A stretch of 63,839 nucleotides of DNA, the filler included, from Folioceros fuciformis (Eukaryota), in assembly GCA_049999805.1 (NCBI GenBank). It is 9 parts of 9 records of this genome, joined end to end, with 100 filler letters (N's around TTAATTAATTAA, not from the genome) between each part and the next. Parts side by side here need not be neighbours in the genome. Positions count along the whole stretch, not along the records: positions 12,009 to 17,145 come from JBNGIO010003639.1; 8 more parts are not named here. One strand, 5' to 3'. The notes beneath the pieces were generated by a model. That model was not told the DNA's origin, did not search any database, and saw only the letters and a list, made by a program, of their open reading frames with translations. How positions within the stretch are numbered: position 1 is the first letter of the stretch; every line of letters starts with the position of its first letter. Of this stretch, positions 12,009 to 49,900 are shown in pieces. The translations under genes were made by a program, and so were the position numbers.

Positions 12009-12845
12009 AATCAGACGAGGAGAAGGGAGAAAAGAAGGAAAAGAAGAAGGTCAAGGACAAGAAGAAGGAGAAGGAGGAATCAGACGAGGAGAAGGGAGAA
12101 AAGAAGGAAAAGAAGAAGGACAAGGACAAGAAGAAGGAGAAGGAGAAATCAGACGTGGAGAAAGGAGAAAAGAAGAAGGACAAGGACAAGAAGGAGGAGA
12201 AGGAGAAATCAGACACGGAGAACGGAGAGAAGAAGGACAAGGACAAGAAGAGAAAGGAGAAATCAGACGAGGAAAAGGAAAACAAGGAGGAGAAGAGTTC
12301 AAAGANNNNNNNNNNNNNNNNNNNNNNNNNNNNNNNNNNNNNNNNNNNNNNNNNNNNNNNNNNNNNNNNNNNNNNNNNNNNNNNNNNNNNNNNNNNNNNN
12401 NNNNNAGAAGAGTTCAAAGAAGGAGAAGGAGAAGGTGAAAAAAGATAAGAAAAAGAAGAAAGCGTCCGACAAAGTGAGAGAGAAAATTGCGAAGCTGGAG
12501 GCTAAGATTGAACGGATCCTGGCCAAGAAAGAAGACTATGCACAGAGACTGCAGGCTGCCTTGGAGAAAGAGGCCCGAGAAGAAGCTGAAGCAAAGGAGG
12601 CCAAAGAGAGGACGAGTTTGGAGCAGGAGAAAGAGGCAGCTGCTGCCCCTTCAGCTCCAGCTGCAGCTCTGGCTGTGGAGGATGCGAGTTCCGTGGAGTA
12701 TCGTATTGGACAGTCGGTGGTGACCGGAGTGGCGGGAACAGACATTGTGAAGAGAAATAGTGTCGAATCGGAAACCGACCACGTCCAGAGCACCAGCAGG
12801 TCGACGGATGGAGTAGAGGCCCATCCAGCCCCCGCCACCTCCTAG
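12009..12845 (+). CDS. Lys/Glu/Asp-rich repetitive protein with C-terminal coiled coil, 5'-partial
   Basis: 54-69-bp repeats encode ESDEEKGEKKEKKKDKDKKKEKE-like units, followed by KVREKIAKLEAKIERILAKKEDYAQRLQAALEKE. Stop at 12843-12845; 100-N gap at 12306-12405. Confidence 0.75.
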   Translation, partial: NQTRRREKRRKRRRSRTRRRRRRNQTRRREKRRKRRRTRTRRRRRRNQTWRKEKRRRTRTRRRRRRNQTRRTERRRTRTRRERRNQTRKRKTRRRRVQRXXXXXXXXXXXXXXXXXXXXXXXXXXXXXXXXXXKSSKKEKEKVKKDKKKKKASDKVREKIAKLEAKIERILAKKEDYAQRLQAALEKEAREEAEAKEAKERTSLEQEKEAAAAPSAPAAALAVEDASSVEYRIGQSVVTGVAGTDIVKRNSVESETDHVQSTSRSTDGVEAHPAPATS

Positions 12846-13641
12846 TTGGGACTCGTACTGTAGGACAAGCATGTCTGCCTGTTGAGTTTAGAAGGTACAT
12901 AGCTGTAAGTGTATGAACCACTCCGCAAAGTGTGTCTTAAGTTATGGCCATTTGCATTCCATGCCATGCCAGGCTGTAGGAGGAATGTACATACTGTGGA
13001 AGTGGTGCCCATGTGTCTTGGTTGGCGGATGTCAGCTTTGCCCCGTTCTCTGTAGCCCAGCTGTGGCTCCCGTGGAACCAGGTATCCAGCTTCACGCCTG
13101 TGGATCCACGTTACCCCATGGTGACCAAGTCCGGCCAATGAGGCATAGATTCTACTTGCTTATCATCCTTGTATGTACGCAGTAGGAACTCGGGAGCAAG
13201 GCCGTTCTTTCTGTCACTCAGTGTGGTGGGCCACTGACCCCGCGGGCCCATCTGTCCTATTTTCAAATCTTTTTGTTGCTGTCCAAGTGTGGCAAGGGTG
13301 TTGGCCCCGCCACGGTACCGTCTCTTTGGCCTTGTTTGAATTCCTGCCTATCGGCTCTTTCCCCCGCGCTTTCCCTCTTCTCATTTTGTTTTTTTTTATT
13401 TTCAGGTCATGAACCGAGTCCACGCTTGTGATCTTTAGTCTCTGCTTCTGTTCTCGAGCTGCAAGGTGCTGTCTTGCTGATTGCGGCGACACAGCTGCGC
13501 CGGCGCCTGCGCCCGCGCGCGCATCTTGCATTTTGTTTCCGGAAGGAAGTCGCCTGGCGATGGCGGATTAGCGGGGAGAGGGAGAGCCAGGGAGGAGAGC
13601 AAAATCACGGGGGTTAGGAGGTGAAGGGAAGGCGGACGAAG

Positions 13642-16260
13642 ATGCCAGGGAGCGTGCGAGTGTCTGTGCTGGAGGTGCTGGACCTGCCCCTGTCGCTGGT
13701 GGGGAGGACGGTGCAGGTGCGGGTGACCATGGGAATGAAAGAGTACAAGACGAAACCGGTCCGGGCGCAGGGGGGAAAAACCCCGCCCTGGAATGCCGAC
13801 TTCGCCTTTCCCGTCTTGAATCTGCGCGACAAGCTGGAGGTGCTCATCGTGGGCAACCGCGGCGAAACCATGACCAAGGCCGAGATCGAGGTGTCCACCA
13901 TCGTGCAGAAAGGCTACCGCGACGAGTTCGTGCCTCTCCAAGGGGGAGGTCGCATCCATCTCAAGCTCTCCTTCGTCCTCAGCGAGGAGGAGCGCCGTCG
14001 AATCGAGGCCATGCGGCTCAGCAAGAAGCAGCACCCGTCACCTCCTCCGCCGAACCGCCCGGAGCCCGAGCTGGAGGGACCGGCGCCAGCGGCTCCGGTC
14101 TCGGTTTCGCTACCGGGTCGGCTGCCGGTGACGCTCCCGCGGATGCCCCCGCCTCCTCCTTCGCTCACCATCACGGAGATCGTGGACGAAGATAAGGAGA
14201 ACGAGGGCAATGGGGGCCGGCCGGGCAGGCGCGTGCCCAAGGGGCTCACCAGGAGAGAGCACAGCCAAGATGGTGGAGTTGTGAGAGCTGCCGGGAAGGC
14301 GGCAGTTGCCGCTGTGGGAGGCTGTGTGGAAGCTTGTCCTAGGACGGTGGACACGGAAACAGGCGAGGTGAAAGACGATGAGAGCAAGGTACAGGGCGAT
14401 GATGTTGCTAGGACAGCGGATGGAGAGGTGGCGGCTCCCGCAACGCCGCCGCAGCAAGAGGCTGCGGTTTCGGAAATGGAGCCGGAAGGAGTGGGTACTG
14501 TGGATGGGGCCGGAGAGGAGGGAGGGGACGTGAATGGGGCGGAAGATACGGCGGAGGTACAGGATTTCCTGGAGCACGAGATGGGTGAGAGTTGGATGGA
14601 CGATTGGATCCGGGATGAGCCTGGAGTGGTCAAGGGGGCCGAGTCGGGCGTGGAAGGTAAGGGGCAGGAAGGGGCAGAGAGAAGGGTAAAGGTGATTGGA
14701 GGTATAGGAGTAGCGAGAGAGAGTGGTAGGAGCAAGGTAGGTGCGGGAGAGGGTGTAGAGGAAGAAGGCACCAGGTTAGTGGGGGAGAAGTGGCATGCGG
14801 CCTCTGACTTGGTCCAGGTAGAGAGGGGTGGGTTGGAGGATTCTGATGCAGATGATGACTCGGTCTCGTTCGAGGATCGGATTGATGCGGTGCAGAGAAG
14901 ATGGCTCATGTACGCCGACACCATGGCTGGGCAACAGGGAGAAGCGCAGTCGAAGGATGTTGGGATGCTGGACCAGGAACAGGTGAAGGCAGTGGTTAAG
15001 GGCAAAGCAAGAGCTGTCCAGGAAGTAAAGGGAGAGAAAGCAGATGTAGATTCTGAGGTCCGAGTATCGAGTGAGGCGGGGAGAGAACGAGGGGATGAAG
15101 CTTTTGATGAGCTTCGAGGAATTGACGAAGGCAGGAGGCGAGAGGGAGGGGGGGGTGGTGAAATTTCTGAGGTCCAAGAAAGAAAGGAGTGTAGGAGGGA
15201 AGCAGCAGATCATGGCCTTGTTGTACGCGAAGGAAGTAATTCAAGGCTTGGAGTCCCTGCGTTCCCGGAATCAAATGTGACGAGGATTGATGCCCCTGAG
15301 TCTCGAAACTCAAAGCAAGCGGCGGATGGTGATGATGCTCAGTTTCCAGATTCGAAAACGGCAAAGGTTGCTGAAGCAGAAGATGCTCTTGAGTTTCGGG
15401 ATGCAATTCGACCACGGGTTGAAGACTCACAGAATGCTGTTCCTGAGTTTCCGGGTTCCAAAGAAGTGAGGGCTGGAGGTGCACAGGATGTTTCTGAGAT
15501 TCGAGAAACGCATCAACCTAGGGTTGAAGGTGCAGATGATGATGCTTCCAAGTTTCGAGAAAGAAAAGAGGCCGTAATTGAAGGAACTGATGATGTTCTT
15601 CAGTTTCGAGGGATAGGTGAAGCAAGGAAGAACAATGCGGATGACGGGCTCAAGTGCCTAGAAACGAATCAAACACAGTTGGTGAGGGAAATTCCTGTCC
15701 AGATCCTGGCTCGTGGAGCAAAAACAGTCAATGAACAACAACAGGCTGTGTCGGACGCATACTCCGTGCCAGTGCCAGTGAGAGCGGATGGAGACAGAGA
15801 CGGAAGAGGGAGTGGTTCTTACAACGACGGCCCCACCACGGTTGACAAGCGCATGGTGGAGGAGACTCCCACCGTCACCAGAGAATCAGCTGAGGATGGA
15901 CTCTCCTCAGCCACGACCAAATCTGCACTGGAGCTTGCTGCCTTGCCCGCGAAGCTGCAGCAGGACGAGCGATCCTCCAAGCCAGCCTCCCCGAAAGCCA
16001 AGGGTGAGGCTCGGCAGCATTCTAAAGTGGGAGGCATCGTCGCTCACTTCCTTGGTGGATTCGCCATCGTCGCAGGAGCAGCCGCAGTTCTCTGGTCCGT
16101 AGGATCCAGGAAATACCACGTCGTTGCGGAAGGGGAATCGTTCCACACTTTCGCTCCTCCCAACTCCTCTTCCCTCCAAAACTCCGCTTTCTGCAAGCTC
16201 AATCCCGGCGTGTGCGAGTCTGCCAAAGTGTACTCCGGCCAGCGCCTCCGGCTTGCTTGA
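13642..16260 (+). CDS. Intronless 872-aa protein: N-terminal C2 domain, Pro-rich and acidic disordered linker, single transmembrane helix, C-terminal LysM-like domain
   Basis: C2-like N-terminus MPGSVRVSVLEVLDLP...PPWNADFAFPV...VPLQGGGRIHLKLSFV. Hydrophobic stretch VGGIVAHFLGGFAIVAGAAAVLWSVG (16027-16104). Tail YHVVAEGES...LNPGVCESAKVYSGQRLRLA*. The ORF is uninterrupted. Confidence 0.85.
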   Translation: MPGSVRVSVLEVLDLPLSLVGRTVQVRVTMGMKEYKTKPVRAQGGKTPPWNADFAFPVLNLRDKLEVLIVGNRGETMTKAEIEVSTIVQKGYRDEFVPLQGGGRIHLKLSFVLSEEERRRIEAMRLSKKQHPSPPPPNRPEPELEGPAPAAPVSVSLPGRLPVTLPRMPPPPPSLTITEIVDEDKENEGNGGRPGRRVPKGLTRREHSQDGGVVRAAGKAAVAAVGGCVEACPRTVDTETGEVKDDESKVQGDDVARTADGEVAAPATPPQQEAAVSEMEPEGVGTVDGAGEEGGDVNGAEDTAEVQDFLEHEMGESWMDDWIRDEPGVVKGAESGVEGKGQEGAERRVKVIGGIGVARESGRSKVGAGEGVEEEGTRLVGEKWHAASDLVQVERGGLEDSDADDDSVSFEDRIDAVQRRWLMYADTMAGQQGEAQSKDVGMLDQEQVKAVVKGKARAVQEVKGEKADVDSEVRVSSEAGRERGDEAFDELRGIDEGRRREGGGGGEISEVQERKECRREAADHGLVVREGSNSRLGVPAFPESNVTRIDAPESRNSKQAADGDDAQFPDSKTAKVAEAEDALEFRDAIRPRVEDSQNAVPEFPGSKEVRAGGAQDVSEIRETHQPRVEGADDDASKFRERKEAVIEGTDDVLQFRGIGEARKNNADDGLKCLETNQTQLVREIPVQILARGAKTVNEQQQAVSDAYSVPVPVRADGDRDGRGSGSYNDGPTTVDKRMVEETPTVTRESAEDGLSSATTKSALELAALPAKLQQDERSSKPASPKAKGEARQHSKVGGIVAHFLGGFAIVAGAAAVLWSVGSRKYHVVAEGESFHTFAPPNSSSLQNSAFCKLNPGVCESAKVYSGQRLRLA

Positions 16261-18049
16261 ATTCACCCTTCTCTACATTCCCCCGGCTTTTCCCCCCGAT
16301 ATTGAGAATGCTTGCGAAAATGGCTTCTCCGAATTCTAGGGGACATGAGTCTGTTCAGCTCGGCTACAACCTCATCTTCCCACGTTGCCCTACCCTGAGT
16401 AGCATCACAGGGAAGCGAGGTTTCACCGACACCCCGTTTGAGTCATCTCGTACCTGCGCTTTCTGGCGATGTCTCCGGCATTCTACTACCGAGACTTCTT
16501 CAAAGCTTGCTGACTTGGTGCCTCGTCTCTGATCACGAACAAGTCGGTGGCGTTGTTCTGTCGGTGATGTTTCTTGCTTGACTTCACAGTAAGCAACGAG
16601 AGCTGAAAAGACGCGCAGCAGCTTGCTTCAGCTTACGAAGCGTTTCTAAATGTGGAGGGAGAAAGGCATGGGTGTGGTCGTAACGCTTCAAAGCGGGGAA
16701 GCAGATAGGTGTTGATGTGGTCATGGCAAGTAATGGCCTGCGTACTGCTGGAGCCGACGGCGGGTTCGTGCCGACGCGTGGCAGCGCTGTTGTCGTGAAT
16801 TCGACGTGGCACTACCCGATCAAGCTCCCGAGCTCAGATTTGCCGCGTCGAGTTCATCCGCGTTCGCCTGCCTGCTTATATTGTGGTGAAGGGCCGCATT
16901 AGGAGTAGCGAGCACAGTCTTCTCTTGCGCGCGACGCTTTGTTCTCGTTGCGGTGGGAAGGCTAGATCTGCCGGATTTCCAAGACAGTTTGCAAGTTTTC
17001 AAGCGCCTTCTACATGTAAGAGCTGGGAGTGTTTGGACGGGAATGCATTGAATGATTATGGAAGGGAGGTGAAAGATAGAGCTGTTTGGAAGCGTTGTAG
17101 GCTGAGGTTAGCCGGTCGAGCTGCAGATCCGGTGCAGCATTGGAGNNNNNNNNNNNNNNNNNNNNNNNNNNNNNNNNNNNNNNNNNNNNTTAATTAATTA
17201 ANNNNNNNNNNNNNNNNNNNNNNNNNNNNNNNNNNNNNNNNNNNNTAGCCGACAGGCTATGAAGGAGGCGAGGCCAGCCACCCGTGGAAGCTAGGATGAA
17301 TGTTTGCCCATGTGGCTCCCCGAAAATGGGAACAGAGATGAGGATGTCCATATGGCGTCGGCCAGAATAGGCCTGAGGTGGGCCCGATTTGGGCAGCCGA
17401 TGCAGGGGAAAGGTTACGGAAATCGATAGACCAGACTCGATGACGAGGCGGAGGATTGAGGACGGCGAGGGGCCTGGCTTGCGGCAAGTAGTTGACTTGC
17501 GGCGAGGACCAGAGAAGGGAGGATCTGGCCAGCTGTGGATTGGGGCGCAGCCCTGGCTGCAAATGCAGCCCACTGTTGTCACACTGTGCGGCTTAAATTG
17601 TCTAGTGCAATGCCTTTACGGCGAGAGAGAGGTGCGGCAAGTGGGGAGCACAGCAGTGCAGTGCAGTGCAGGTGACGTGAGGTGGAACACGACTCCCATG
17701 AGTGTAGGGCATGGGAAAGGAAGGGAAAAGGGCAGGGAAAACGGTGGGGTAGATGGGAGAGGGAGAGAGTGGCGGCCCCTTCGGCCCCCGATTTCGCCTC
17801 GCGGGAAGAATCAAATCTCCGGAAAAGGAGTGCGACAAGTTGGGCTAACCGGGAAGAGGGCCCGGGCAGCGCATGTCCAGGCTCTACCCAGAGAGATTCT
17901 CGCCTACAAAAGCTGGCGGCGGGGCGCCCAGAGCAAGGCTTGCCCAGCAGAAGTAGCTCCTGGCTCCGCTTGCCTTGGTTGCTGCCCGGGCCGAGGACAC
18001 TTAGAGAGGAGGGAAGAAGGGGAGCAGAGCAGCGCAGCGCAGGAGTAGC

Positions 18050-23125: not shown

Positions 23126-26309
<3,184 letters not shown>

Positions 26310-26934
26310 TAATGGAGTGGAAGGGAGCCTATTCATGCGATCGGGGGTGTTTTACCCAAATCGTCTGTACCCAAGCTTCTTATGTATAGTGGTAGTTTCT
26401 TTGTTTATAGTGGTGTCTTTTTGCGGTTCTCGGGAGAAAAGACAAATGTTTGCTCCAGGTAGTGACAGCGACAACAAGTCGAACTAGCTGTTATTTTTCC
26501 GGTCTGGAGGGGGATGAGTCCTTTCATTGGGTATGCTCATCTCGTGCTCCCAATTCTTGCTAGGAGCTAGCCTGTTACTGCCCTCACTGAAAGACACTCT
26601 GCGTCCACTTTATTCAGTAGACGTTTAAGTACTTAAAAGAAAGAGTACCCTCCAGCACACAGGCTGCCCAGACCGGGCTTGAATTTTGCTATGGATGGCT
26701 GCTCCTTGTGCAAGTTATCCTCGTATGGGTGTCACTTCCAAGCTGTACCCCCGCTTGCTCGTCCCATAAACTAGTGAGAGGATAAAAGAACTGTGGAGAA
26801 GGTAGGCAACGAAGATACGATGACGTGCGTGCTCGAGATGTTTCTCAACAAATTCTAGAAATGGTACCGCTGGATGTGGAATGTACACACAAAATTGCAA
26901 TCTGTTGCTCGCTGGAAGAGATAATGCAGATTGA

Positions 26935-29766
<2,832 letters not shown>

Positions 29767-30793: not shown

Positions 30794-32633
30794 CCCCAGA
30801 TGGATCGCAGTTCCGGGTCTCTGCGTTTGCCCATGATACCCTTTTCTTTTCCTCGGCAGAGGAGGCTTCTTTGAACGCTCTACTCCAGCAAGTCAAGGTA
30901 TTTGGGGAGTTGTCGAGTTGCAAGGTTAATTGGACTAAGACTCGCATGATGTGTTTTCACATGGAAGAGGAGCTTCCCCCATGCATTCGACACATTCGGC
31001 GGGTGACGCAAGGGTCTTCTCACAAGTATTTGGGACTTCCCTTCCATGAGGGAGACGAGAATGGTGAGATAGGCAAGTATTTGTGTCTCAGATTCATTCG
31101 TAAAGCAACGAGTTTGCAGCTGTTGGACCTTAACCTTGAGGGAAGGTTGGTGGTAATTAACCATATCCTCACAGCCTCTCTATGGTATTATTTGTTCTTG
31201 TGGGCCCCCTCCAAGATGGAGGTAAAACGGTTGCAACAGGTGTTGACTTCATTCTTGTAGAGACGCGCGGGGNNNNNNNNNNNNNNNNNNNNNNNNNNNN
31301 NNNNNNNNNNNNNNNNNNNNNNNNNNNNNNNNNNNNNNNNNNNNNNNNNNNNNNNNNNNNNNNNNNNNNNNNGAGGTCTATCGACAACATCCTTGCGGAT
31401 AAACCACTTCTTGATACGACAAAGTGCTCCCCTCTCTTCAAGTCAATCTGGAGTAGCTACTTAGAGGTTAAGCAATGCATTCTCCCTTGTTGCCCTTTGC
31501 AAGTTGATGATGTTCTGGGTATTCCTTTGCAAGGTTTCTCAAAGTTGTGGGCTCCAGAAGTTAGGGCTAGGGTGTATTGGTCACAAATCTTTGGATTGGC
31601 GTGTCAGAAAGAAGTTATTTAGCTTGGTCACCTATGGAACAGATCAGAGGCTCGCTGGAAGGAGGTGGAGGAAGTTAAGGGTGAATTTGGTTTAGGGACC
31701 AGACATATTCAGCACATCTTCTCACGGTTGCGAGAAGAATTAGAGGAGAAGGTTCATCAGGTGTTAAGGCAACAACCTATCCGAGGCGCCGAGGGGTGGT
31801 ATGCATATTCCATGGATAGTAAGGGAGCTGATTCTGATAAGGATGAATAGGAGGAAGTCCTCGAACTGGATAGGGCAGTCTGGCTTACGGGCACGGCTGA
31901 AAAAGAAGAACTGCGGTCATTCAAGGTCCTTTTACCCGAAGGACATTTGGAGGATAAGGGCAGGGATGACGGTGATACCCGAAGAGAGGAGCTTAGGTCC
32001 ATCACGGTCCTCTATAAGTCTGTTTGCGCAAGGCGGTGGTGTACCCAAGTCGAACGATCTAATGGGCCACAAACCTCAGGCAAGGCAGCAGCCCGATGTT
32101 GTTAGCGGCTGGCGGAAAATTGGGAGTTGGCTTTCAGACCTGATCTATACAATTGGCCTAGAAGGCCTAGGTGCAAGGCGGTCAACCTTCGGTCTTTCTT
32201 CAACTTCCCAACGGCGGACCTCTACCTATGGATGGTACGAGCGCAGAAACTCAAGCAACGGCAACCCATGGCTCCCAAGCTACAACTATCTGTGCGGAGG
32301 CAAAAGGAGGCTACCAAGCTGCTTTGGAAGTCAGTAGGAATTCCTCCCAAGGTTAGGACAACGGTTTGGTGTTTTTTTCAAGCTTGTTTGCCTAATGCAA
32401 ACCGGTGGGATGGCTTGTTGGCTGTTGCGAGGGAAGACCAGTGTCGACTGTGCACCTCTGGTGCCCCAAATAAAAGCCAACACACGTTCTTTCATTGCAG
32501 CTTTGCCCAAGAAATATGGAGTGAGGTGAGCTATTGGTTGCAAAGGATTCTCCCGGTCGCCAACCTCAGGATCACAAAACAAACTGCACTCGTCACCCCG
32601 CACTCGTCACTGGGACTATGGCCAAAGCCCTAG
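30794..32633 (+). mobile_element. Decayed L1-clade LINE ORF2 (RT C-terminus and zf-RVT)
   Basis: FAHDT (degenerate YADD), KYLGLP, GRLVVINHILTASLWYY, LWKSVGIPPKVRTTVW and CRLC...HTFFHCSFAQEIW, with internal stops and a gap. Confidence 0.85.
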
Positions 32634-36162: not shown

Positions 36163-37140
36163 CTACAGCTCCACTTCTTTACCGATGTAGGGCTTGGACG
36201 CGTACTCCTCTTCCTCCTTGGGGCTGTGGATGGTGACCATATCCGGCAACGGGGTCATGGGGCCCTGCTTGCCCTTCGGGTCCCAGTCCAACATGATCTT
36301 CACCTTGATTCCCAGCACTCCCTGCCGCAGCAGTACATGCCTTACTGCGCTATCGATATACTCATTCACAGGGCTGCCAGACGAAATCATATAACCGTCC
36401 TTGAACTTCATGGATTTGGCACGCTGTGCCCGCAGCTTCCCACTGACGATAACTTCGCAACCCTTGGCTCCACTCTCCATGATAAACCTCAACACGCCGT
36501 AACAGGCTCTGCGGACAGCCAGACCACCCAGCAACTTGTACCGCAAAGACTCGGCCTGGGCAATGGCACAGAGGCCACGGTTGTTCACCTTCTCGGCATA
36601 CAGTTCCACTGTATTTTCAGGGAAGCTAAACCTCTTCTGCACAGCGGAGGTAAGTTCCCTAATTCGTCGCCCCTTCTCACCGAGGACGTTCTGTGTCCGG
36701 GTAGCACGGATGATAATCTCCGTCCGCATAGGTGTCACGCGGACCTCGACGCCGGAGTAGCCGTCCTCAGCTAGCTCCCTCGTAAGCATCTCATTCAGCT
36801 CCGCAAAGAAGACACCATCGGCAACGAACTGTACACAATAGCAGGGCGTCAGTCACCATACTCCGCAGGTTGGTTCACACAGAGCCACGCCAGATTTCCA
36901 GAATCCAGAAAACTCCAACAGTCCCGAATTGACGAACCAATTCCAGCCACGCGTCTCTCAACCAGCACACCATCAGCAGGTACGAGCTCCATACCACAGA
37001 AAACCCAATGACACCCTCTAGTCGCAATGGCAACAGCCAACTGACTTCCCCTGCAAACAACGTAAGGCTTCCCGCATACAAGACCCTGGAACAAAGAGAC
37101 AGTTACATACCTTCCGCTTCTTGCTCATTTGTGTCGCCAT
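36163..37140 (-). CDS. RPS3: 40S ribosomal protein S3 (uS3), 231 aa, 2 coding exons
   Basis: Exon 1 37111-37140 [10 protein letters not shown]; exon 2 36163-36828 [33 protein letters not shown]...[16 protein letters not shown]. Confidence 0.98.
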
Positions 37141-37317: not shown

Positions 37318-37952
37318 GTGGGATGAGAGACTTCCATTATATAGGACTTTGATGGTGGATGGTTATTTTAGAATCGCACGCAAGCCCTAAATAGAATCTA
37401 TTTTTCTTAGTGCACCATTACTGTATCTGTTATTTTCGAGTACAGTGGGTGCTAGCTATGGAGGTGATGTGTAAAATTGACGGGGTCCATCAGGTTTTTT
37501 CCTTCCAGATTCTGTAACATTCCTTCGTATTACGGATTACTACTTTCTTAAGCGGGGTTCTAACTTTTAAAAGGTGGCGGGGTACATGACCACTGAGATC
37601 GCAGCCTCCAGCTTGAGGCCATGGCGNNNNNNNNNNNNNNNNNNNNNNNNNNNNNNNNNNNNNNNNNNNNTTAATTAATTAANNNNNNNNNNNNNNNNNN
37701 NNNNNNNNNNNNNNNNNNNNNNNNNNTAGGGTTGCGGGCTGCAGCCGAGGGTTGCCTCAAGAAGCAGCCGGACCTGTAGGTTGTTGCTGCTGGAGCTCGG
37801 GGCACCGGGTCAGGGAGCTCGCACAATGGGGGAGGGATGAGCTGGTCCTGGACGGTGGGAGAGCTCAGGAGCAGTGCAGACCTGAGCAGGAGGAGGAGGA
37901 AGAGGAGGAGGAGGAGCTGCTGCTGCCCGTGCTAAAAGTCGGGGACGGCGGG

Positions 37953-40900
37953 ATGGCGATATTCATGTCGGACGCTGAATTGCAGCGGGAGGGTACCGAC
38001 GTGGGAACCGTTGTGGCCAGGGCGGAGGCCTATATCGTCGATCTTCAGCGGGAGCTGGAGACGCAGAAGGCAAGAGCGGATGCGGCAGCAATCAATGTGG
38101 AACAGACGTGCGGGTTGATAGAGCGGAAGTTCCTGTCGCTCACTGAGCAGTACAGCCAGCTGGAGCAGCAGAAGGAGCAGACCACAGCCACGCTCGAACG
38201 GCGGTCTGGGGAGCTTGCGCTGGCCCAGGCGCAGACGCACCGGCTGGAGCTTGAAGCTGTGAGTTTGTCCAGTACGGGTTGGATCGTAGTGGAATTCGGA
38301 GCGGGCTGTGCCAGTGTGTGTAATATGCGGGGAGTGATGTTGGTGTGCGTGTCTGGTGCAGATAAAGCGGGATGCGGAGGTGGAGAGGTTATCCTTCGAG
38401 CTCTCGGAGTTGAGGAAGTCTAAGAGGGAGTTGCTGGATCTTGTGGATCACAAGAATTCGGAGTTGGACGAGAAGAATTCGTCCATCAAGTCCTACTTGG
38501 ATAAGATTGTGAGTGTTTTGAATGCATGCTTGTGTGGAGGTGTGAAGACGAGATCAGATGTGGGAGTACTTATTTGGATCGTGTTGCACCCTGTTGCTGC
38601 TGCTAGGTTGCCTTGACTGATGACCGGAGTACGCTTGAAAGCAAATTGCATGAGCATGAGGCAGAAGTTACTCGCCTTCGGGCTTCGCAGACGCGGTTGG
38701 CACAGGTTAATGTCATGTTGATACTCTGCCTGTTTGGCCTTGTCGTGTTTGTGGCTTTTGGTGTCGGCTAACTTTGTTGTCCTCTTGTGTAGGAGAAGGA
38801 ACTGTTGAGCCAGCACAATGCCTGGATCAATGACGAGCTATGTGTGAAGGTTGCTGCCTTGCTTGAAGAGAGGAGAACACGTGCAGAAACTGAATCAGAG
38901 CTTCGAACTAAGCTGGCAGAGGTAATTGTTCGTATTCGAAGTAAGATCTAAGAACATTTTCTTGTCTTGAGGACATGGGCCGGATAGGTGAATAAGCAAC
39001 CTGAGATTCTGTTGTCTGACAGGCTGAGAGGCGTGTAGAGGAACTCGGAGAAGCAGCACGGAGACATTCTGACCGGAACAAGGAACTGGAGGCCAAGCTT
39101 GCTGAGTTGAGGGAGGTAAATTCAGGAGCACCGAGTTGTTTGGCTGNNNNNNNNNNNNNNNNNNNNNNNNNNNNNNNNNNNNNNNNNNNNNNNNNNNNNN
39201 NNNNNNNNNNNNNNNNNNNNNNNNNNNNNNNNNNNNNNNNNNNNNNTGATTGAGCAACCACCTCCTTTGACAACCAGGACTTGAAATTTGCGAAGGAGGA
39301 TGCGTCAGCAAAAGTGGACCATCTTTCAAATGAAATTGCAACTGTACGTCATGGTGGTGTGTTGTATTCATTTGGTGCTGGGTGTTTCTGAGCTGAGTCT
39401 TCCCGTACCGAGTAGACCAATTCTAATACTTGGACTCACAGGCAACTAAGCTTGCTGATCTGTACAAGGAGAGTTCAGATGAATGGTCAAAAAAGTCTCA
39501 CGACCTTGAGGGTGTCATCACAGCACTCAAGGTGATCCCCCCTACGTACCCTCCTTGTCATTGTGGATTGGACCAGCAGGTTGCAACAAGTAGCGGCTTT
39601 ACATGTGTCATGCACTCTTTTGCAGGGATATCTGAATCAACTAGAAGTAGAGCACAATAACAAGCTGGATGAGGAGAGAAGGGCTCGGGAAGCTGCACAG
39701 AAGGTACGGTGGTCATACATGTTTGACAATACATTTTCTAGCATCCTGTGCATTTCTTTGACTTTGGTGAGTGACTGCTGTTACAGGAATCGGCTGACTA
39801 CAAGCAACAACTGGAAAAGGTTACCAGTAATGACGGCCGGATGAAAGAGGGTTATTTGGCGTTGACCACTGTGTCAACGTCTGTCCTGGATGTCACAAAG
39901 TTCGTACATGTCATTCGCACTACATACAAATCCTTCATCGTTTTGCTCTCAGTCCGACTTTGTTCAACGATGTATGACACCTCACTCTTTTTACAGTGAT
40001 AAGCAACTCTCTATGGAGCTTCACGAGGATGGATCACTGCTGCCGCCAGGGCTCCAACTCTCGGGGACTGCTCTAGCAGCTTCCCTCCTCCGAGATGGAT
40101 GGAGTGTAAGATATCCAATGGCGTTAAGATTGCATTGTGAAGTGATTGCTTAGTGAACGGAAGAAGGGAAGTGATTGCTTAATCAACTGAAGATGGGAAC
40201 ATTGACTCTGCACTTTTGGGCCACTTTTTTCCCCAGATAGCTACTATGTACAGTAAGTACCAGGAAGCAGTGGATAAATGGAGACATGAGAAACAGGCGA
40301 GACACTACTCAGAGGGCATCTTGCAAAAGGTACTATGGTATGGTGCATCCACCTCAGTTTCCAGGGAGAGAAGGTTATTCGGGTGTTCATCTTGACTCTG
40401 TCTCTCCTGGTGTGTAGGTTTTACATGAGATTGAGTCTAAAACTGACTTGATTCTTGATGAAAGAGGTATGTTCCGTCCAATTAGAAACCACGGAAAGCA
40501 GTTATACTGTGTTTGATGTGTGCTGTAGTCATGACCACAATTGTCACAGTTTATTGCTGGTGTGTTCAGCTGAGCATGAGAGGATGGTTCGGGCTTACAC
40601 AGTAATGGAGGGAAAGCTAAGGCAGTCCATGGCGGATCAAGTTTCACAGGACAACATCATTAAGGACCTCAAGGTGCTTGTTAAAGATCATTCAAGGTTT
40701 TTTTGCCCTTGAAATGGTGAAATTGGACGGTATCTCTGGTAAGCGTTGTGTCCTTGTACCATGATGCATGGGCCTGCTCTGAATTTTGGCGCTCTTGCAG
40801 GCTGAGCTCAGGAAGAAAGATCGAGATTTGAAAGGAGCAGGAAAGGAGCTCTCAGACCTTCAGACGCAGGTTTTTCACAGACCCAGATGGTGCCTTCTGG

Positions 40901-43900
40901 CCTCACATGTAATGCAAGATCTTACTGTCTCAGTCATACATTTTTGTTGTTGGTGTGTCCAGGTGTCTGTATTGCTGAAAGAGTGTGGTGACATTCAAAA
41001 ACGGTTTGGTGCTGGAGACGCGAACAATCAAAATGGGAATGCCGATGTGCATACTCCATTGGCTGGCTATGAACTGTCATATGCAGATGCTGTCATCTCC
41101 AGTAGGCTTGTAAGTCCAGGAATCGCACCAGTGTTCTTGCTACAGTCTAAACATAATGTCTGTGCGGACACCTTCCAAATAATTCTGCGAGCGTGCATGT
41201 ATTATGTACAGGTTACTTTTAAAGACATTAGGGGGATGGTGGAGCAGAACAGTCAGTTGCGAACTGTTGCTCGGAACCTAGCGCAGGAGAATGAAGAAAA
41301 GGAGGCATTCTTTAAGGTGCCTTTTTGTTTTTGGATCTATCTCCATCTTTTTAGATCTTATCAGATTTGCTGACTATTGATTCGGTTTATTGCAGGAATC
41401 TTTTGAGATAGAATTGCAGAAACGAACTGAGAAACTCGTTCAGAAAGTCTCTGAAACTGTGGAAAAGCTAGAGGAAGAGCAGCAATTAAGGGAGACATTG
41501 CAAGCAACAGTGCGTCATCCAATCAGTGTGCTTGTCTGGCTGCTACAGTTGCTATGATAGTAGTCTGCATCTAACTCAAGATTTGGTAATACTTGCAGAT
41601 CCGGATGTATAAAACACTGTTTGAAGAGACCAATGCCTCACGAAATTCCCAGCTATCTCCAACTTTGCCACTAGGTTGGTTAATGTAAATGAGTCAGACA
41701 CTGCTTTGGAATGGTGTCATTCCATCTGTGAAGACTAGAACAGCCGTTCTAGTGTCTCCCTGTCCTGATGGGAATGGCCATTTGATGATTTGCTTTAAAG
41801 TATTTTGAGAGTGCACCGGATTTCATGGATGATGGGGTATGCTTTGCAGGTGACGGAGGAGAAGATATGAGAAAAGTGCTCAACAACAACCAAGTAAGGC
41901 CTTTGGTTGTAGTTCTGGAACGTGGAAAGACTTCCAATTCGTAACCTTTTGTCCGTTTGGTCAGGCCGGATGTTGAGCTGGCTTTTTGCGTTGAACAGGT
42001 TGAGATTCAGAAGCTGCGAAATGAAAGTGCTGCACGTATAAAGGCTCTTGAAACAGAGCTGGAAGTTGCAAAGTAATCCCATGTGGTGTTATCTTCTGTT
42101 TTTTAATTCCATAGCTATCCCACGTGACTTGTGGGTATGGAGTGTGAAGAATTGTACATCCCTTTCCTGGAAAGGAAGAAATGTAACCAGGATGGGCCCT
42201 TGTAACAGGCAACAAGTCATCAACTCCCGTGTTGAACAAGCCAGAGCGGATGGAGCTGGTTCATTTGCAAAGGAGCAATTAGAGTCTCAAATGAGAGATT
42301 TTGAAAATCAGGTAGGTGGTCTCTACTGTTGGAACAGGTTTACTTGACAATTTCCGAGGGTAGTCAACAACTTGTGAGGGTAGTCAACACAGACCTTCAT
42401 TGCGAGGGCAGTCAACAATTTGCGCAATGATTTGCATCCTTGCGAGGGTAGTTCTAGACCTTCAATGGCTATGTCTTGGTCCTGCAGCGGAAGGAGTTGG
42501 AGTCACTGCTTCGAAGGAATATGGAGTATTCTCAGACAATTACGGACTATCAACGGAAATTGCGGGAGAGTGCCCAGACTGTGCAAGCTGCAGAAGAAAA
42601 TGCCCGAAAACTGTCTATCGAAGTATGCAACCAAGATCTTGTATGTTTGTGGATGCATGAGGTGGTCTGGCATTCCTGAAATAGATGGTCTTCTAGGTCT
42701 CTGTATTGGAGCGTGAGAAGGATCTGCTAGCTGATGCTGAGAAACGGGCTTCGGATGAGGTGGCCTCACTGTCGGATCGTGTTCATCGTCTACAGGTTCA
42801 AACTTTTCCCTTAGTTGAAGAAGGTTTTCCTTTATTTTAGGGTGATTTGAACCTCCTATTAAGCATTGTTCTTTCCTGCAGGCAACCTTGGATACTGTGG
42901 AGAGCGTGAAGTCTTTTCAGGAAGTATGTGGACCATCCTATAGGTCTTACAGCATGTCAGAGAAGTCGTTGAGTACAACACATTATGTATGTGGAATTCC
43001 TGAACTTACGTTCTTGGATTCAATGCAGAATATGAGAGTTGAAGAGGTGAAGCGCCTAGAAACAGAGTTGAACCGTATGCAGGTGTGCAGAGAACAACTA
43101 TTTGGCTGCATTGCAGTGTTCTGTATGTTTTAATACTGCGAAGGTACTATGTTGTGCGGTTTTATCAAATATGTTCTTTTGTTTCAGAAAGAGTGGGCTG
43201 AAGCAAGGCGAGACCTGGAGGCAGAGAGGTTACGCATTGGTAGTCTGACATCTCAGAGAGATCTATCAGTGAATCAGGCTTTGGACAGGGTGGATTCAGT
43301 TCGAAAAGAGCTCACGGATGCTCTCAAAGCTCTTTCCACAGCTGAAACACGAGCTCAGGTTGCAGAGGTAAGACTTTGGTACCAAGGCTGTAATTGTACT
43401 GAGTTCCTGGTGTTGAATTTCTGCCAGCTGTAAGGCTGAAATTGTTCTGTGATGGCAGGCCCGCTGTATTAATCTGGAGGCCGGTTTAAAGAAGGCAGAG
43501 GAAAAGGTTGTTACATTTGGAAAGCATGTATCTTACAAGTGGTGAACATGTCCTGGAACAATCTTTTTTGACTTGTCGTTTTCATCACAGATTGCTGCTT
43601 TCGTTCGAGGTAAACCATATGAAGCTGATGAAATGGCTTCAAGCACTGATGAGGAAGTGAGTGCCTGTAACAGCTTGTGCTCTTTTGCTGCACATTGTCC
43701 TTGTGAGGGAAAGAAGATCAGACTGGTTTCCTGTTCCTAATTTCTCCCGAACAGATGGTTGTCTCTTTACAACAAGCAAGGGATGAGCTGGAAAAAATAA
43801 AGGAGGACTTGATTGCCTCGCGAGGTCATACTGAGCAGGTATTTGAAAAACTGAACAAAAGAGTCGCACCTGTGTTTAGCCCTGTCCTTTAACGGGCAGT

Positions 43901-46900
43901 AACACGGCATCATGGCCCTGCAGTACAAGAGGATTGCAACTGCCAATGAAGAAGCATTGAAGCAAATGGAAGAAGCCCATACAAGCTTCAAGGAAGAAGT
44001 ATGTCCATATCTTGAAGTGGTTTTCGTCCATAGTGTGCTGGATGTCAAGGCACTTGAATTGGTGGTTTATACCTTGCAGGCTGAAAGAGTTAAAGCAGCC
44101 CTAGAGTCACAGATCTCAAGCTTGAGGAGGAAGCTTTCGGATCTGGAAGCTGATACGTCAGAGAGAGATAAAGTAGCTGCGCTGGCAGTGGAAGAAAAAG
44201 AGGTGATGCTGAGGAGTGCTCTCAACGAGCTGTCATCATTAAAGGGCTTGGCCAACATGAAACAGTGAGTATCCGGTAGTTGAACATTTTCATGTTGCAT
44301 CCTGTTTCATTTTCTAACGTATCTGCTGTACGTGGTTGGGATTGCAGAGCTGCGCTTGATGAAGCTGAGGAGAGGATTGATATTCTGAAGAGAGATGTGG
44401 AGAAATTACACCACCAGTGGCGCGAGGCACAGAACAACTATGAGAGACAGGTACAGCAGGGAGGTCATCAATTTTTACAAGCTGCAATATCTGTGATTTG
44501 GTCAGCTCGTGTCTTTGCATCTGGATCAGCTTACTTCTTCTCAGCGGGGGGGAAGGGTATTCTAGAGGTAGGGGATGTAACGCAGGACACCTGGACATGC
44601 ACGTGCTTGTGTAGGTTCTTCTCCAAGCTGATACCATCAGAGAACTTACCTTGGCATCTGAGAAACTAATGCATTTTGAGGACGAAGTACGGCAGTTACG
44701 AGGAAGAGCAGAGACAGCAGAATCGGGTCTTGTAAGTTTTTAGCCTGTTGGGGATGAATTATGCTAATTTGAAGTAAGCTGGTCTGAAGAGACATGGCCC
44801 TTCTGTGAAGGCATCTTCGAAAGTTTCTTGGGCGATGCAACAAGAGTCGCTTGTGTCCTTGAAGAGCGACATGGAGAACAAACTGAAAGAATTGCATGAG
44901 CAGGTGATGAATAAGCAGGTTCCCAGGCTGTCTTTCCGGACTTTATGCTTCTGGAATGTGCCAAAGAGCTAGATTGCCCACAAACTGGTGTATTGCCCAC
45001 TATAACCACAAACTGGTGTACTGCCCACAGAATCAACTGCTGCTAGACCGACTTGAAGCAAGGCATGTCATTGCAGCGGAACAGGCGCACAAGAAATCTG
45101 AGGGATCTGGAGAGACACATCTTCGTGAGACTCAAACAGAACCTGATCTTCAAAGTGTTATCCGCTTTCTTCGTCGGTCAAAGGAAATGGTACAAAGGAA
45201 CCCTTGATGTTGTTTTCATCTGAGTGCAAACTCATGGACATTGACGACCTCAGGTTGGAAATCTGTTTGCAGTCTGATACTGAGCTTTCCCTTATGAAGC
45301 AAGAACGCCTTCGACTGCAAAAACAGGTAGCTGTGTGGTGGTGCTCTTCCACACATTCCTCCAGCTTTACAGTTCAACCTTTCAAGTTTTTCTTGTGACC
45401 AGGGTAGTTATCTGATGATCGACTGAGATCTTTTCTGTGGAAATGCAGCTTGATGCAGCACTGCGAGCAGCAGAGGATGCTCAAACTACTTTGCGTCGGG
45501 AGCGAGAAAATGCACGATCTAACTTGCACACTGATCAGGATCTGAAGAGTCTGCAGGCCCAGGTATGTATGGTCATGTAATTGTTTCAATATCGATCCTG
45601 GTATGTTGGCCTAGAAAATCCAGCATTGATCTGGAATTGGATGGCAGGTGAAGGAGTTAGACCTGTTGCGGGAAAGCAATGCACAGCTTCGTGAAGAAAA
45701 CCATAAGAGTTTTGAAGACAGCAAGGTCAGTTGTGTATGTGCGGTTGTATCACAGCAGTCCTGGAGCTGCTTTGTTCTGGGGTTAGGTTTATAAGATATT
45801 ACTTCATGAACAGGATTCAAGGGGAAAAGCGGGAAAGGCTCAAGCAGAACTTGAGGTAGTACAGAAACAGCTACGGGACCGAGAGGTTGACTTGGAGGCT
45901 GCTGGAAAAGACCTTGAAGTCCAGAAAGCTGAAGCTCAGCGATGGCAACACAGAGTGTCACAGGTTTGATTGCCTAACGAGCTGTGTCATCAAGCATGGG
46001 CTTCCAAGTTCCTGATGGCAATATCCTTGGATTTTTCAGCTGTTGGAGAAGTATCGGTCTGTTGATGTAGAAGATTACCAGCGAGTTAAGGCGCAGCTTT
46101 CAGAACTTCAGGTAACTGTTGGACTTCATTACCCACTCGTTCACTCTATGAGCTCACAAAAGTTGAGCTTTATGAACATTATGAGCTGCAAGACTTGTCG
46201 ACCCTTACATGGATCTGACTTTGAAAATTTAAACTCGCAGGCTCAATTGTTGGAACTAAGGGAATATAGCAACAAGCTCCAGGAAAAAATTTCAAGCTAT
46301 GAGCAGGATATCACATCGAAGCAATCAAAAATTGCTGAACTTGAGAGGAAGGTGCAGGAACTTACACAATCTGAGGTGCGTTGTTGTTTCTGCATCATAA
46401 TGTAGTATCCTTTCCCCGTATTTCCTAGGAAACTCAGGTAGAACGATCAATCCCTGTGTAGGCTACTTTCAAAGCTGAACTTGAGAAGTTTAAGAGGCAT
46501 GCGGCATTCTTGAAGGTATTTCAATTTCTTCTATTTTTGAATGCTGATTTGTCATGGTAGTACAGAAACTTGTTCATCTCTTTTGTAGGTCAGGTGTTTG
46601 GAGAACTAAATGAATGTCTACCCACCAAGTCTGTGAATCTCTTTCTTCTTGGATTCACCTTGTCAGTGGGTTATTGCAGAGAAAGACTGATATGCTGACG
46701 AGAGAGAAAGATGATCTGAGCAAAGAAAGTGAAAACCTTTCAAAGCAGGTTGAAGAGCTGAAGGCAAATGCAGGTTGGTCTGGTTCTATGCAGTATCTAA
46801 ATACTGTTTTGCTGCCTGGCCTGTACGTTGATCGCCAATAATTCTCACCAGTTACCTGCTTAGGTAGAAAAGCTGGTGAAGGTACCCGAGTAGAGGGCTC

Positions 46901-49900
46901 TCAAAGGCAAGAGGGGGCCGCACGACAAGAAGTATCTACCCGGCAAGAGCAAACAGATATCCTAATGAGAGAACAGGATGTCAGGATTCAGGTCTGTGCG
47001 TTTTAGAGGATATGTTATCTTAGGTGATTTTAAGTTCTGTTCTCGGAAAGTGTCCTGTGTGGCTCTCAACCATTAGTCCTTCTGCAGAGCCTGGAAAGGA
47101 CTCTTGAACGGGAGAGAGATGAGTTAAGGAAGGAGAGGCTCAGGAGGCAGAAAGACCACAGGGCCTTTAATGAGATAGCAGATAAAGCTGTGCAGGTTCA
47201 ACTGATCTCACTTTCCGACTGTGTGCACGTTCTTTTGCTTGGATGTTGGCTTCTGCAAATCCTGTTGCCTCATTGCTGTGTCACAACCGCAACTGCTCTC
47301 TGATGAATAATATCGTTCTGTGTGGTCTGACTTCTTAATTTTGGGCACTGATATAGGAAAAGAAACGTTTCCTTGATGAATACCATTCTTTCAAGCAAGA
47401 TTTGGAGGTGAGCAAGTCTTAATGCTGTTGGCAACGGTTGGCTAGGTAGGGTTTGCACTGGTTCTCCATTGGACTTGCCGGGGTAATAGCTTATCTGTTT
47501 TGCAGCAAAATGGGATGAGAGGCCCTGGCTTGCACGAACCTATCACCCAGATAGCTGTCGAGGACAAGGCTCAGTTGTATGAAGCTGCAGTGGGTCCGCT
47601 TGCAAGTCTGGCTTCGGGTGTTTCATTGGATGCAACTCTTCTGCAAGTTGCACCTTCGACCCCTGCTCTTGCTGCGACCAGTCAGACGCAGAGTGCAGGA
47701 GCAGACTCTTCTGTGCCTGTGGTGTCGGTACAACTGTCGCCACCTTCAAGTTCTGCAGTAGCTGTGCCAGCTGAGCCAATAGCAACCGCAGCTTCGACTA
47801 TGTTACCTTCTGGTGCTCCTGTAACACAAGGAGAAGTTGGTGCACCTGTAGAGTTTGCATCCTTCAACTCTTCAGTTCCTGGAGAGTCTGATGCTGGTAT
47901 TCCTGTAGCTCCCACTAGCATGCTGCCTGCGGAGTCTCAGCCACTACTCTCAGAGGCATCCGTGCCCGGTTCTGGTATCTCAACAGCTGTTTCCCCCATA
48001 ACGTCGTCACCTTTAGTGCCTGGTAGTGTAATCCCAGCTGTATCTGGGCCGCGTCCAGGTGCAAAGCAGTTCGTACACCCTCCAAAACCTGGTGGCCGGG
48101 GTGCTGGGTCTATTGCTCCAGTTCTCCCATCAGCTGGCCAGAGTAAGGAAGACTTGGACCTGAGGATTCAGCAGCTGCGTGCTCATCTACTAGAAAAGGA
48201 GGTTAGTCGTGTGAAGTTCGTCTGCATTGGAGATTTGATGATAGTTCATACATTATTCTGAGGAGAGTCCAGGCTTCTTACGTGTTATCTATGCTTATAT
48301 CTTGGCATTCTCTGAAATATTTTTGTATAAGCTCGTGCAGAAGGCGCAAGCCCAAGCTCGTAAGATGACACGCAAGCTAGTGCGGCCAAGAATTGAGCCT
48401 GAAGTTCAGGCAGAACAGCCTGAGTTGGTGACAGAAGGGCAAGTCGAGACAGCAGAAATGGATAGTTATAGTCCAGACAGGAGGACTGTCGTTAGTGTTC
48501 AAGATGCATCAGAGGCTCCTCTGACAGGTTCAGAGTATGCTGGTGCTGATTCACTTCTAGAACCCACAGCTGTCGATGAAACAACTGTGGCATCTCAACT
48601 GCTAGGAGTGGGACAATCTGTAGCCCGCAAGCGAACTGCTTCGATGGCTGATGCAGTTCCACAGAGTGGCTTGGTCGATGAATATGGCTTGCCCGCAGAA
48701 ACGGTGCCTGCGTTCAAGAGGGCAAAGCCTGATGAAGCAATGGAGCTTCCCTCTGCCCGCCCTGAGGCCCCTAGTCCCTCTACCCACACAGAGGCCCCTA
48801 CTACTACAAGTGGCAGTCGGGAGGACTCATTACAGACTGTCAGGGAGGATGTGGTTCAACCACTTTCGGTAGAGGCAGCACCAACCATGCCAGACACCCC
48901 GGTGGAGGTCAATATTTTCTGTGTTACAGAGACCGCGAGCATCCAGATAGAGAGTAATACTGAGGTGGAGAGAGACAGACCTGTCTCTGATTTGGGAGAC
49001 ATTCCTGCCCTGAAGAAACAGCGTACTGTGTGGCGGCAGCCAGTGGCAACTGGAGATGATGGCAATCAGGATCGCCCTTTTGCAGAGCCGATACTGGCAA
49101 TCTCTGAAGAAGCTTTTTTGGCAGTGTCAGGAGAGAGAGAACATGCAAAACCTGATGCAGGTCTGGAGCCTGTCGTTCCTGCTGAAGTAGAAAATGCTAT
49201 GGGAAAAGGAAATCAAACGCCTGGCAGAAATGGAAATCCTTATGGAGGCAGTCAGGAACTGGTGTTGGGTGTGCCGATGAAAGATAATCAGCCTGATGAA
49301 GGGCAGATAGGTACAGTTTTATCAACTATGCATCCCGTTAATGGTTCTTCTACAGATACAGTAGCTAACGTGAGCTGTCTCAACCCTACAGGTGCAGGAG
49401 GTGACCTTCAGTTGATTGTTGCTCTAACTGCAGACCCATCTTTCAAACCTCAAGATAGAGAGCTCGAAGAAAGTGCATTATTGGAAGGGAAAGTTGCTTT
49501 ATCAGATGTTGGTGCATATGTGACTCAAGATACAGAGAAGGAAGGAGGCGCGGACAGAGATGAAGATGCAGAAGACGGGGAGTTACTGACTGATGCAGAG
49601 GGTATAGCCGAGGGTTCTCATGGTTTGGTTTCTGGGGGACGAGAAACAGGAGATGGGGATGTACCATCAGGAAGTGAAGCTGGCAACCTTCCGGTGATAA
49701 CGGACAGCTCCGGTAAAGTCCCAAACCCGGCCTCTGCTCCGTCTATGACCGCAGAAGCAGGCCAGGTGTCTCTGTTAGGAGAGCAGACGGATTTGCAAAG
49801 GCAGGCAAGGCAAGTCCCAAGGGGGGGTAGTACAACTATAAACCTTGCAGAGCGTGCAAGACAGAGGGCCGAGATTCGGAGAAAGCAAAATGTCTCACCT

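Follow-up and report, generated by a model that had tools for sequence, protein, structure and literature searches.

A Folioceros fuciformis protein with a C2 domain, a C-terminal membrane anchor and a divergent LysM domain has a catalogued but unstudied architecture and belongs to a streptophyte-wide family

Introduction

Proteins that combine a C2 domain with a LysM domain have been on record since 2009, when 'C2+LysM' was tabulated among the algal and non-seed-plant architectures lost in angiosperms; the accessible part of that survey assigns them no function (Zhang et al., 2009; PMC2728734). Its Chlamydomonas example, cr156645 (322 aa), carries an N-terminal C2 domain, a low-complexity linker, a flagged transmembrane segment (TM) and one LysM at the C-terminus. 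Here we analyse a gene of Folioceros fuciformis (GenBank assembly GCA_049999805.1) located at 13642-16260 (+) of the window, by which we mean the whole stretch of 63,839 nucleotides of DNA under study, filler included. The encoded protein likewise displays an N-terminal C2 domain, a TM and one C-terminal LysM, its homology to cr156645 being compared by eye only. Because this layout was tabulated in 2009, it is not the novelty that the original prediction for this locus took it to be. What our analysis adds, at the level of sequence, is that land plants as a whole retain the gene, its LysM alone being present in some lineages and missing from others: whereas the survey, as far as accessible, counts the architecture as lost in angiosperms, these have kept the gene and lost only its LysM. 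The Selaginella orthologue could not be located in the available portion of the survey's supplement.

Other described proteins share parts of this design. LysM receptor-like kinases and receptor-like proteins possess a signal peptide, an N-terminal ectodomain with several LysMs and a kinase or glycosylphosphatidylinositol anchor, whereas the Folioceros protein has a single C-terminal LysM and no kinase. PMI1 and PMIR proteins contain an NT-C2 domain and are not known to have a TM, and some of them end in a LysM. Like the present protein, they can unite a LysM with a C2-type domain, but here the C2 is of the classical PF00168 type and a TM lies between the two. Tethers of the synaptotagmin, extended-synaptotagmin and MCTP types share the TM anchor and the cytosolic C2 with our family; unlike them, the family lacks an SMP domain, is anchored at its C-terminus, has a LysM that would lie beyond the membrane and, in land plants, contains one C2 without calcium ligands.

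Among LysM proteins linked to plastids, PPASP also has a TM followed by a C-terminal LysM, and a location in the outer membrane of the plastid, in contact with peptidoglycan, has been suggested for it (van Baren et al., 2016; PMC4815162, in the parts available). The descriptions of PPASP, however, give it two domains, an N-terminal TM motif and the LysM, without a C2, whereas the TM of the Folioceros protein lies at residues 799-820, behind the C2 and a long spacer. PPASP tracks the peptidoglycan pathway according to the same parts of that paper, including in moss (three Physcomitrella copies) and several angiosperms; the LysM of our family does not. LMR1 (Cre09.g393765), a LysM protein of Chlamydomonas found in chloroplast envelope patches (bioRxiv 10.1101/2022.05.31.493820), provides an envelope LysM protein in an alga without most peptidoglycan genes; the accessible description, on which our comparison is based, gives it two LysMs and mentions no C2. 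Finally, database entries labelled 'LysM domain-containing protein' from Klebsormidium (GAQ87986.1), Riccia fluitans and R. sorocarpa are true orthologues of the Folioceros protein and share its layout, their labels being automatic and naming no function. The literature searched, with most subscription journals outside its coverage, yielded no functional study of C2-TM-LysM proteins. The architecture of the Folioceros protein is catalogued but unstudied, and its uncharacterised family spans the streptophytes.

Results

The frame at 13642-16260 (+) translates into 872 aa without an internal stop and comprises the following features:

13642..16260, + strand: open reading frame (ORF) of 872 aa, ordered C2, helix, disordered spacer, TM, LysM (translation; contig cover without differences)
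13642..13980, + strand: C2 domain, aa 1-113, without the calcium-binding Asp of loops 1 and 3 and with basic residues on the middle strands (Pfam; PDB 9bkw alignment; family alignment)
13981..14025, + strand: putative charged helix right after the C2, EEERxxIxxMR, a family signature (invariant columns E117, R118, I121, M124 and R125)
14026..16026, + strand: disordered spacer, aa 129-795, Pro-rich and then acidic and Gly-rich, unconserved (composition; no Pfam match)
16036..16101, + strand: sole TM helix (aa 799-820), rich in Gly and Ala, with KQVLGGAxxxAGxxVLWP as consensus in the family (Kyte-Doolittle (KD) hydropathy 2.17; family alignment)
16111..16254, + strand: divergent LysM, aa 824-871, first helix shortened (orthologue profile, shuffles, model and structure matches)
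16192..16215, + strand: Cys851 and Cys858, candidate disulfide in the LysM (joint presence or absence across orthologues)

This order of C2, disorder, TM and LysM had been read correctly from the sequence alone, and is now backed by the Pfam C2 match, hydropathy and orthologue-based evidence for the LysM. A frame or assembly artefact was ruled out, as the same orthologues match the N- and C-terminal domains, in order. Positions 12438-17015 are matched letter for letter by a single contig of run X1, which is possibly the window's own source and probably DNA. In a read-run check for expression, X1 revealed no splice joint and covered the flanking DNA as well, and runs X2 and X3 gave no useful cover; these runs yielded no RNA evidence for the gene.

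The tail is a divergent LysM that Pfam misses. Its residue pattern, from which the assignment had first been made, is insufficient alone: searched by itself, the tail has no Pfam match at E<=10 (the PF01476 gathering cut-off of 20.9 is not reached) and no LysM match among PDB sequences (phmmer) or in the ESM Atlas, none of 47 candidates scored in a homologue search with residues 790-872, and a single-sequence model of the tail (predicted local distance difference test, pLDDT, 54) found no meaningful Foldseek match. The assignment stands on its orthologues instead. Alignment with the Selaginella tail scored 86, the best of 2000 shuffles reaching 37, and a profile built from eight orthologue tails, the Folioceros sequence excluded, recovered residues 822-871 among stored proteins with an E-value of 2.2e-14. 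PF01476 itself matches seven of the eight aligned tails at E<=1 (best 1.1e-6), scoring 23.6 in Klebsormidium, 24.7 in Chlorokybus and 20.9, the cut-off, in Selaginella. A tail model predicted from a nine-orthologue alignment reached a pLDDT of 86.8 with the order E2-5 H12-15 H27-31 H33-38 E46-49, in agreement with the beta-alpha-alpha-beta fold that had been anticipated, with an extra helix and a first helix that is short because of a conserved Pro. LysM domains were its top structural matches, namely 4uz3 in Foldseek (probability 0.98, TM-score 0.62, E 0.065) and 4xcm in VIA-align (Z 4.6, root-mean-square deviation 2.9, 43 residues aligned), each individually weak, as expected for only ~50 residues. 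The family-alignment profile retrieved 13 PDB sequences at E<=1, the closest being the bacterial LysMs of SafA (E 4e-7), Kbp, LytE and TsaP. From Chlorokybus to lycophytes, tails are 25-51% identical to that of Folioceros, which departs from the family GETL motif, and both loop motifs at the usual binding groove are kept. A metagenome scan based on land-plant tails confirmed 8 of its 162 pattern matches, all of them bacterial-looking LysM proteins with no C2 in their flanks, and no further plant loci emerged.

A second feature of the tail is its cysteine pair. All eight tails with a Cys after the LNP motif contain a second Cys, which occupies one site in the five tails from algae and a different one in Riccia and Folioceros, and both are missing in Selaginella and Diphasiastrum; elsewhere in family proteins Cys is scarce (0-1.6%). 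This joint occurrence suggests that Cys851 and Cys858 may form a disulfide bond and that the domain may occupy a non-cytosolic position, the pattern amounting to only about two evolutionary events. The Folioceros tail also contains one N-glycosylation sequon, which is unconserved (1 of the intact tails).

At the other end of the protein, residues 4-96 match the Pfam C2 model PF00168 (E 4.2e-5), the N-terminal 133 aa scoring 24.1 bits against a cut-off of 22 and the whole protein scoring below it; NT-C2 models gave no match at E<=10. The calcium Asp positions of loops 1 and 3 are substituted in an alignment with PDB 9bkw (E 9e-4), and the family alignment shows that neither the Folioceros protein nor its land-plant orthologues retain the conserved Asp residues of a calcium-binding C2. 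The Chlorokybus member has two C2s and matches those of synaptotagmin and MCTP2 (E 1e-8 to 1e-11).

By hydropathy there is no N-terminal signal, the N-terminus being the first C2 strand, and the sole outstanding hydrophobic 19-mer of the whole protein spans residues 799-817 (KD 2.17; runner-up 1.26). Since no signal peptide is present and 800 residues precede the TM, the best inference from sequence places the N-terminus, C2 and spacer in the cytosol and the LysM beyond the membrane, in keeping with the earlier suggestion that the two domains face opposite sides. A single TM near the C-terminus without an N-terminal signal is, judged by hydropathy, the arrangement of a tail-anchored protein. 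The strict definition allows about 30 aa or fewer after the TM, according to the accessible parts of reviews, and the 50-55 aa found here exceed it, so that the label tail-anchored does not apply in this sense; most LysM-less members do stay within it (median tail 8 aa). In 90 LysM-less members with a C-terminal TM, the mean net charge is -1.0 over the 12 aa before the TM and +2.9 over the 12 aa after it, with a mean KD of 2.0, and fern tails carry +5 to +9 in all eight examined. The same reviews, as far as accessible, associate moderate hydrophobicity and a basic C-flank with the outer membranes of plastids or mitochondria, and a C-flank that is neutral or acidic with the endoplasmic reticulum (ER). 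The basic C-flank points towards an organelle outer membrane and the cysteine pair towards the secretory lumen: the two clues would entail the same topology and conflict over the membrane. The moss proteins P0007, P0013 and P0165 illustrate variation at this end, one paralogue group being TM-less by hydropathy with a short conserved end segment instead and another having a TM and a neutral tail.

To place the protein in its family, we searched with the C2 and obtained 13 proteins of comparable length as well as 205 cluster representatives at E<=0.001; the analysis covered the best 150 of these representatives. Because these are representatives at 50% identity and the best 150 of 205, a LysM-bearing paralogue in moss or fern could be missed. 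Organism names were available for 30 representatives, and family counts refer to 125 hits of at least 300 aa, excluding three generic C2 proteins and shorter hits. A hydrophobic segment lies within 80 aa of the C-terminus in 105 of the 125, and 11 have an intact LysM (8 of these seeded the tail profile). The intact C2-spacer-TM-LysM arrangement occurs in Chlorokybus, Klebsormidium, two species of Riccia, Selaginella, one Diphasiastrum gene and two further proteins grouping with Closterium; one Closterium model is near-intact, its LysM being clipped N-terminally so that the first strand is absent. The LysM is eroded in Chara and in a second gene from Diphasiastrum (E 0.003), as it is in Ginkgo (E 0.14), where residual motifs are still found in place, and in conifers. 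Pairwise comparison of the Folioceros tail with gymnosperm tails was insignificant (355, 1017 and 642 of 2000 shuffles reached the score), and the gymnosperm domains are called eroded on position and residual motifs, not on significant scores. Two conifer-type proteins, P0011 and P0012, run ~500 residues past the eroded tail to a RING-like Cys/His pattern, for which read-through, fusion and assembly chimera are candidate readings.

None of the moss (0/8, from about six genes) or fern sequences (0/9) retrieved has a LysM, one fern LysM-profile score (E 0.036) falling in the spacer rather than after the TM, and the domain is missing from all angiosperm-type hits among the best 150 of 205; its loss in angiosperms had been foreseen in the original prediction. 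Moss, fern and angiosperm hits mostly retain C2 and TM, and the Calypogeia and Closterium NIES-67 models end early and are uninformative on the tail. Setting this distribution against the accepted plant phylogeny, we infer that the LysM is ancestral and underwent about four or five separate losses or erosions. In a C2 tree of 39 rows, the Folioceros protein groups with mosses and liverworts (88/86, not starred) and lies inside neither, a weak placement that would suit a hornwort-like bryophyte. Peptide searches in supplements on tail-anchored proteins gave no match for an Arabidopsis orthologue. When compared with the Selaginella protein, a cluster in the ESM Atlas that comprises 123 C2 proteins (mostly from Chlorophyta, where known) scored 0.84, which we treat as no more than a lead on common ancestry with cr156645.

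Co-occurrence of the LysM with plastid peptidoglycan genes had also been proposed as a test, and it fails in part. Of 10 pathway genes, Physcomitrella possesses all and Chlamydomonas 3 (table S5, PMC4815162); lycophytes and ferns are reported to show antibiotic phenotypes, and gymnosperms to retain the genes (bioRxiv 10.1101/2022.01.05.475093), and streptophyte algae, bryophytes and lycophytes are said to possess the peptidoglycan toolkit (PMC13519894), in each case within the accessible parts of these sources. The LysM of our family does not track peptidoglycan, because it is absent from the moss and fern sequences while a C2-TM-LysM protein exists in Chlamydomonas (homology by eye only). PPASP was described as TM plus LysM in all embryophytes with the pathway, a description that does not extend to this family, as no LysM was found in the moss or fern sequences retrieved. 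The Chlamydomonas C2-TM-LysM protein is compatible with a plastid location, given that LMR1 localises to envelope patches in this alga.

Between C2 and TM, the spacer contains 28% Pro in residues 129-200 and 21-23% Asp plus Glu in residues 201-790, and its length ranges from 169 to 1085 aa in the 21 family members measured. Within it, positions 15200-15650 (aa ~530-660) comprise about five degenerate ~18-aa repeats, over which third-position GC falls from 0.8 to 0.34; these are probably a lineage-specific expansion. The spacers of 81 of the 125 family members, from Klebsormidium to angiosperms, contain the motif V[KR]xxIxx[FY]E (shuffle mean 0.14, maximum 2), for example at 681-689 in P0006, 284-292 in P0033 and 205-213 in P0084. 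It was undetected in the Folioceros spacer, where 15 of 100 shuffles score equally high; its spacing is presumably reminiscent of actin-binding motifs such as the Xin repeat. A second motif, W-I-F-P...C-[IV]-T-T, has 39 hits in the 125, in angiosperm-type members, and none among the top non-angiosperm hits.

Discussion

We propose that the family constitutes calcium-independent, C-terminally anchored membrane tethers or scaffolds of early green plant origin, equipped with an accessory, non-cytosolic LysM. This is our leading explanation, held tentatively and at somewhat less than even chance. Since the C2 lacks calcium ligands, it would bind anionic lipids or a protein partner constitutively and independently of calcium, and it might link the anchor membrane to a second membrane or to the cell cortex across a variable gap; the variable spacer length is as would be expected of a distance-spanning linker. 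The LysM would be an accessory that positions or retains the anchor via an N-acetylglucosamine-containing glycan on the far side, and peptidoglycan may serve as its ligand where present without being required for the family's core job.

Several points weigh against this proposal. Tethering is an analogy from the layout, and the literature described above contained no localisation, binding or mutant data for any family member. The three moss tails examined are neutral or acidic (charge 0, 0 and -2), other moss proteins lack a TM by hydropathy, and the Folioceros TM is flanked by +2 on both sides. Oxidative folding of a cysteine pair is more typical of the secretory pathway, and an R-[RKH]-X ending, which we take to be a mitochondrial motif, occurs in just 1 of 76 angiosperm-type sequences. 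In our judgement, the anchor most likely resides in an organelle outer membrane, the plastid envelope being the foremost, if still less than evenly probable, candidate and a mitochondrion or peroxisome quite improbable; the ER, Golgi or plasma membrane is a serious, though minority, possibility.

The cytosolic C2 and the far-side LysM could instead belong to a dedicated plastid peptidoglycan tether, whose TM would sit in the outer envelope, whose LysM would grip peptidoglycan and whose C2 would couple the plastid wall to a membrane or the cortex, LysM-less lineages using another anchor such as PPASP. Intact LysMs are indeed found in streptophyte algae, liverworts and lycophytes, all reported to have the peptidoglycan toolkit in the accessible parts of the sources cited above, and in no angiosperm hit; the nearest solved relatives are bacterial-type LysMs, the C-flank is basic, and an equal role has been proposed for PPASP (PMC4815162, in the parts available). 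However, the domain is lacking in the moss (0/8) and fern (0/9) sequences and eroded in Ginkgo and conifers despite the genes reported there, the Chlamydomonas protein, homologous by eye only, occurs in an alga with 3 of 10 pathway genes, and it is PPASP, not this family, that follows the pathway, as far as the accessible sources go. The dedicated role, one of the functions originally suggested, is weakened by these observations and in our view unlikely; a plastid envelope location may still apply. We are equally doubtful of a type II secretory or plasma-membrane protein, in which a LysM folded with a disulfide in the ER lumen would bind glycans of the wall, N-glycan cores, or chitin or peptidoglycan from microbes, and the C2 would contact the inner leaflet or an adjacent membrane, as a wall-membrane linker or a kinase-less sensor. 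The paired Cys (8/8 tails) in proteins otherwise poor in Cys, the sequon in the Folioceros tail, and a tail beyond the tail-anchored limit, which would permit co-translational ER insertion, all speak for the secretory route; against it, the Cys pattern reflects about two evolutionary events, the sequon is unconserved, a basic C-flank is unusual on the luminal side, and no kinase, signal peptide or other signalling module is present. The sensor, also among the functions first envisaged, found no positive support, and the accessible part of a preprint on Marchantia LysM receptors covers the LYK, LYR and LYP classes only.

The LysM might also bind no glycan at all, either mediating protein interactions or persisting as a decaying relic, or else the hydrophobic stretch might form a hairpin, with both ends of the protein remaining on the cytosolic side. 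Some eukaryotic LysMs have non-glycan roles, and in this family the first helix is cut by a conserved Pro, the Folioceros domain is off the GETL motif and fails Pfam, and the domain has been repeatedly lost or eroded. Yet it has been kept from Chlorokybus to lycophytes, groove loop motifs included, while the spacer has not, and the hydrophobic stretch has the length needed to cross a bilayer; we regard these readings as quite unlikely.

Selaginella SmLysMn6 (supplement S3 of PMC2728734, in its accessible part) has, by eye, a calponin-homology-like N-terminus, an acidic spacer, a TM and a C-terminal LysM. It thus resembles the present family in layout but has another cytosolic head, which suggests that non-seed plants possess a wider class of proteins ordered as 'cytosolic module - spacer - TM - LysM'. 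A broader, speculative and rather improbable idea is that non-seed green plants possess plastid envelope linkers, in which a cytosolic C2 or calponin-homology-like head, a spacer, an outer-envelope TM and a peptidoglycan-gripping LysM would couple the plastid wall to membranes and the cytoskeleton; the LysM would have been shed lineage by lineage and the cytosolic half retained throughout the land plants, relatives of Arabidopsis included, as a tether at plastid contact sites. The linker of nucleoskeleton and cytoskeleton (LINC) complex of the nucleus offers the comparison for such envelope-spanning linkers.

The surprise is limited by the cataloguing of the layout in 2009. The family nevertheless touches on two open questions, the host-side binder of plastid peptidoglycan and the proteins tethering plastids to other membranes, and it represents one uncharacterised gene lineage that extends from Chlorokybus to the Brassicaceae. 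Tractable models offer versions that naturally have the LysM (liverwort) or lack it (moss), which makes the role of the LysM directly testable by swaps. Should the protein belong to the secretory pathway, it would define an unstudied kinase-free LysM class lost by most vascular plants.

Other observations on the window

The gene lies entirely inside the piece 12406-17145. Pieces of the window are joined by 100-N gaps and 44N-TTAATTAATTAA-44N linkers, and adjacency across joins is unreliable; the neighbourhood was uninformative for the C2-TM-LysM gene among the 41 of 166 window ORFs scanned. Upstream of the gene, 13380-13440 contains a polypyrimidine tract with an AG near 13406 and, after it, a short ORF of 9 codons, some 230 bases ahead of the start codon; these may be the end of an intron in the 5' untranslated region and a uORF. 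Elsewhere, in the same scan, 37728-49945 (+), 23327-29475 and 30796-32630 contain exons from a nucleoporin-like gene of the TPR/MLP type, a pair of protein-kinase exons that lie on opposite strands, and fragments of reverse transcriptase, and a reading frame for ribosomal protein S3 runs unbroken over 229 codons at 36166-36852 (-).

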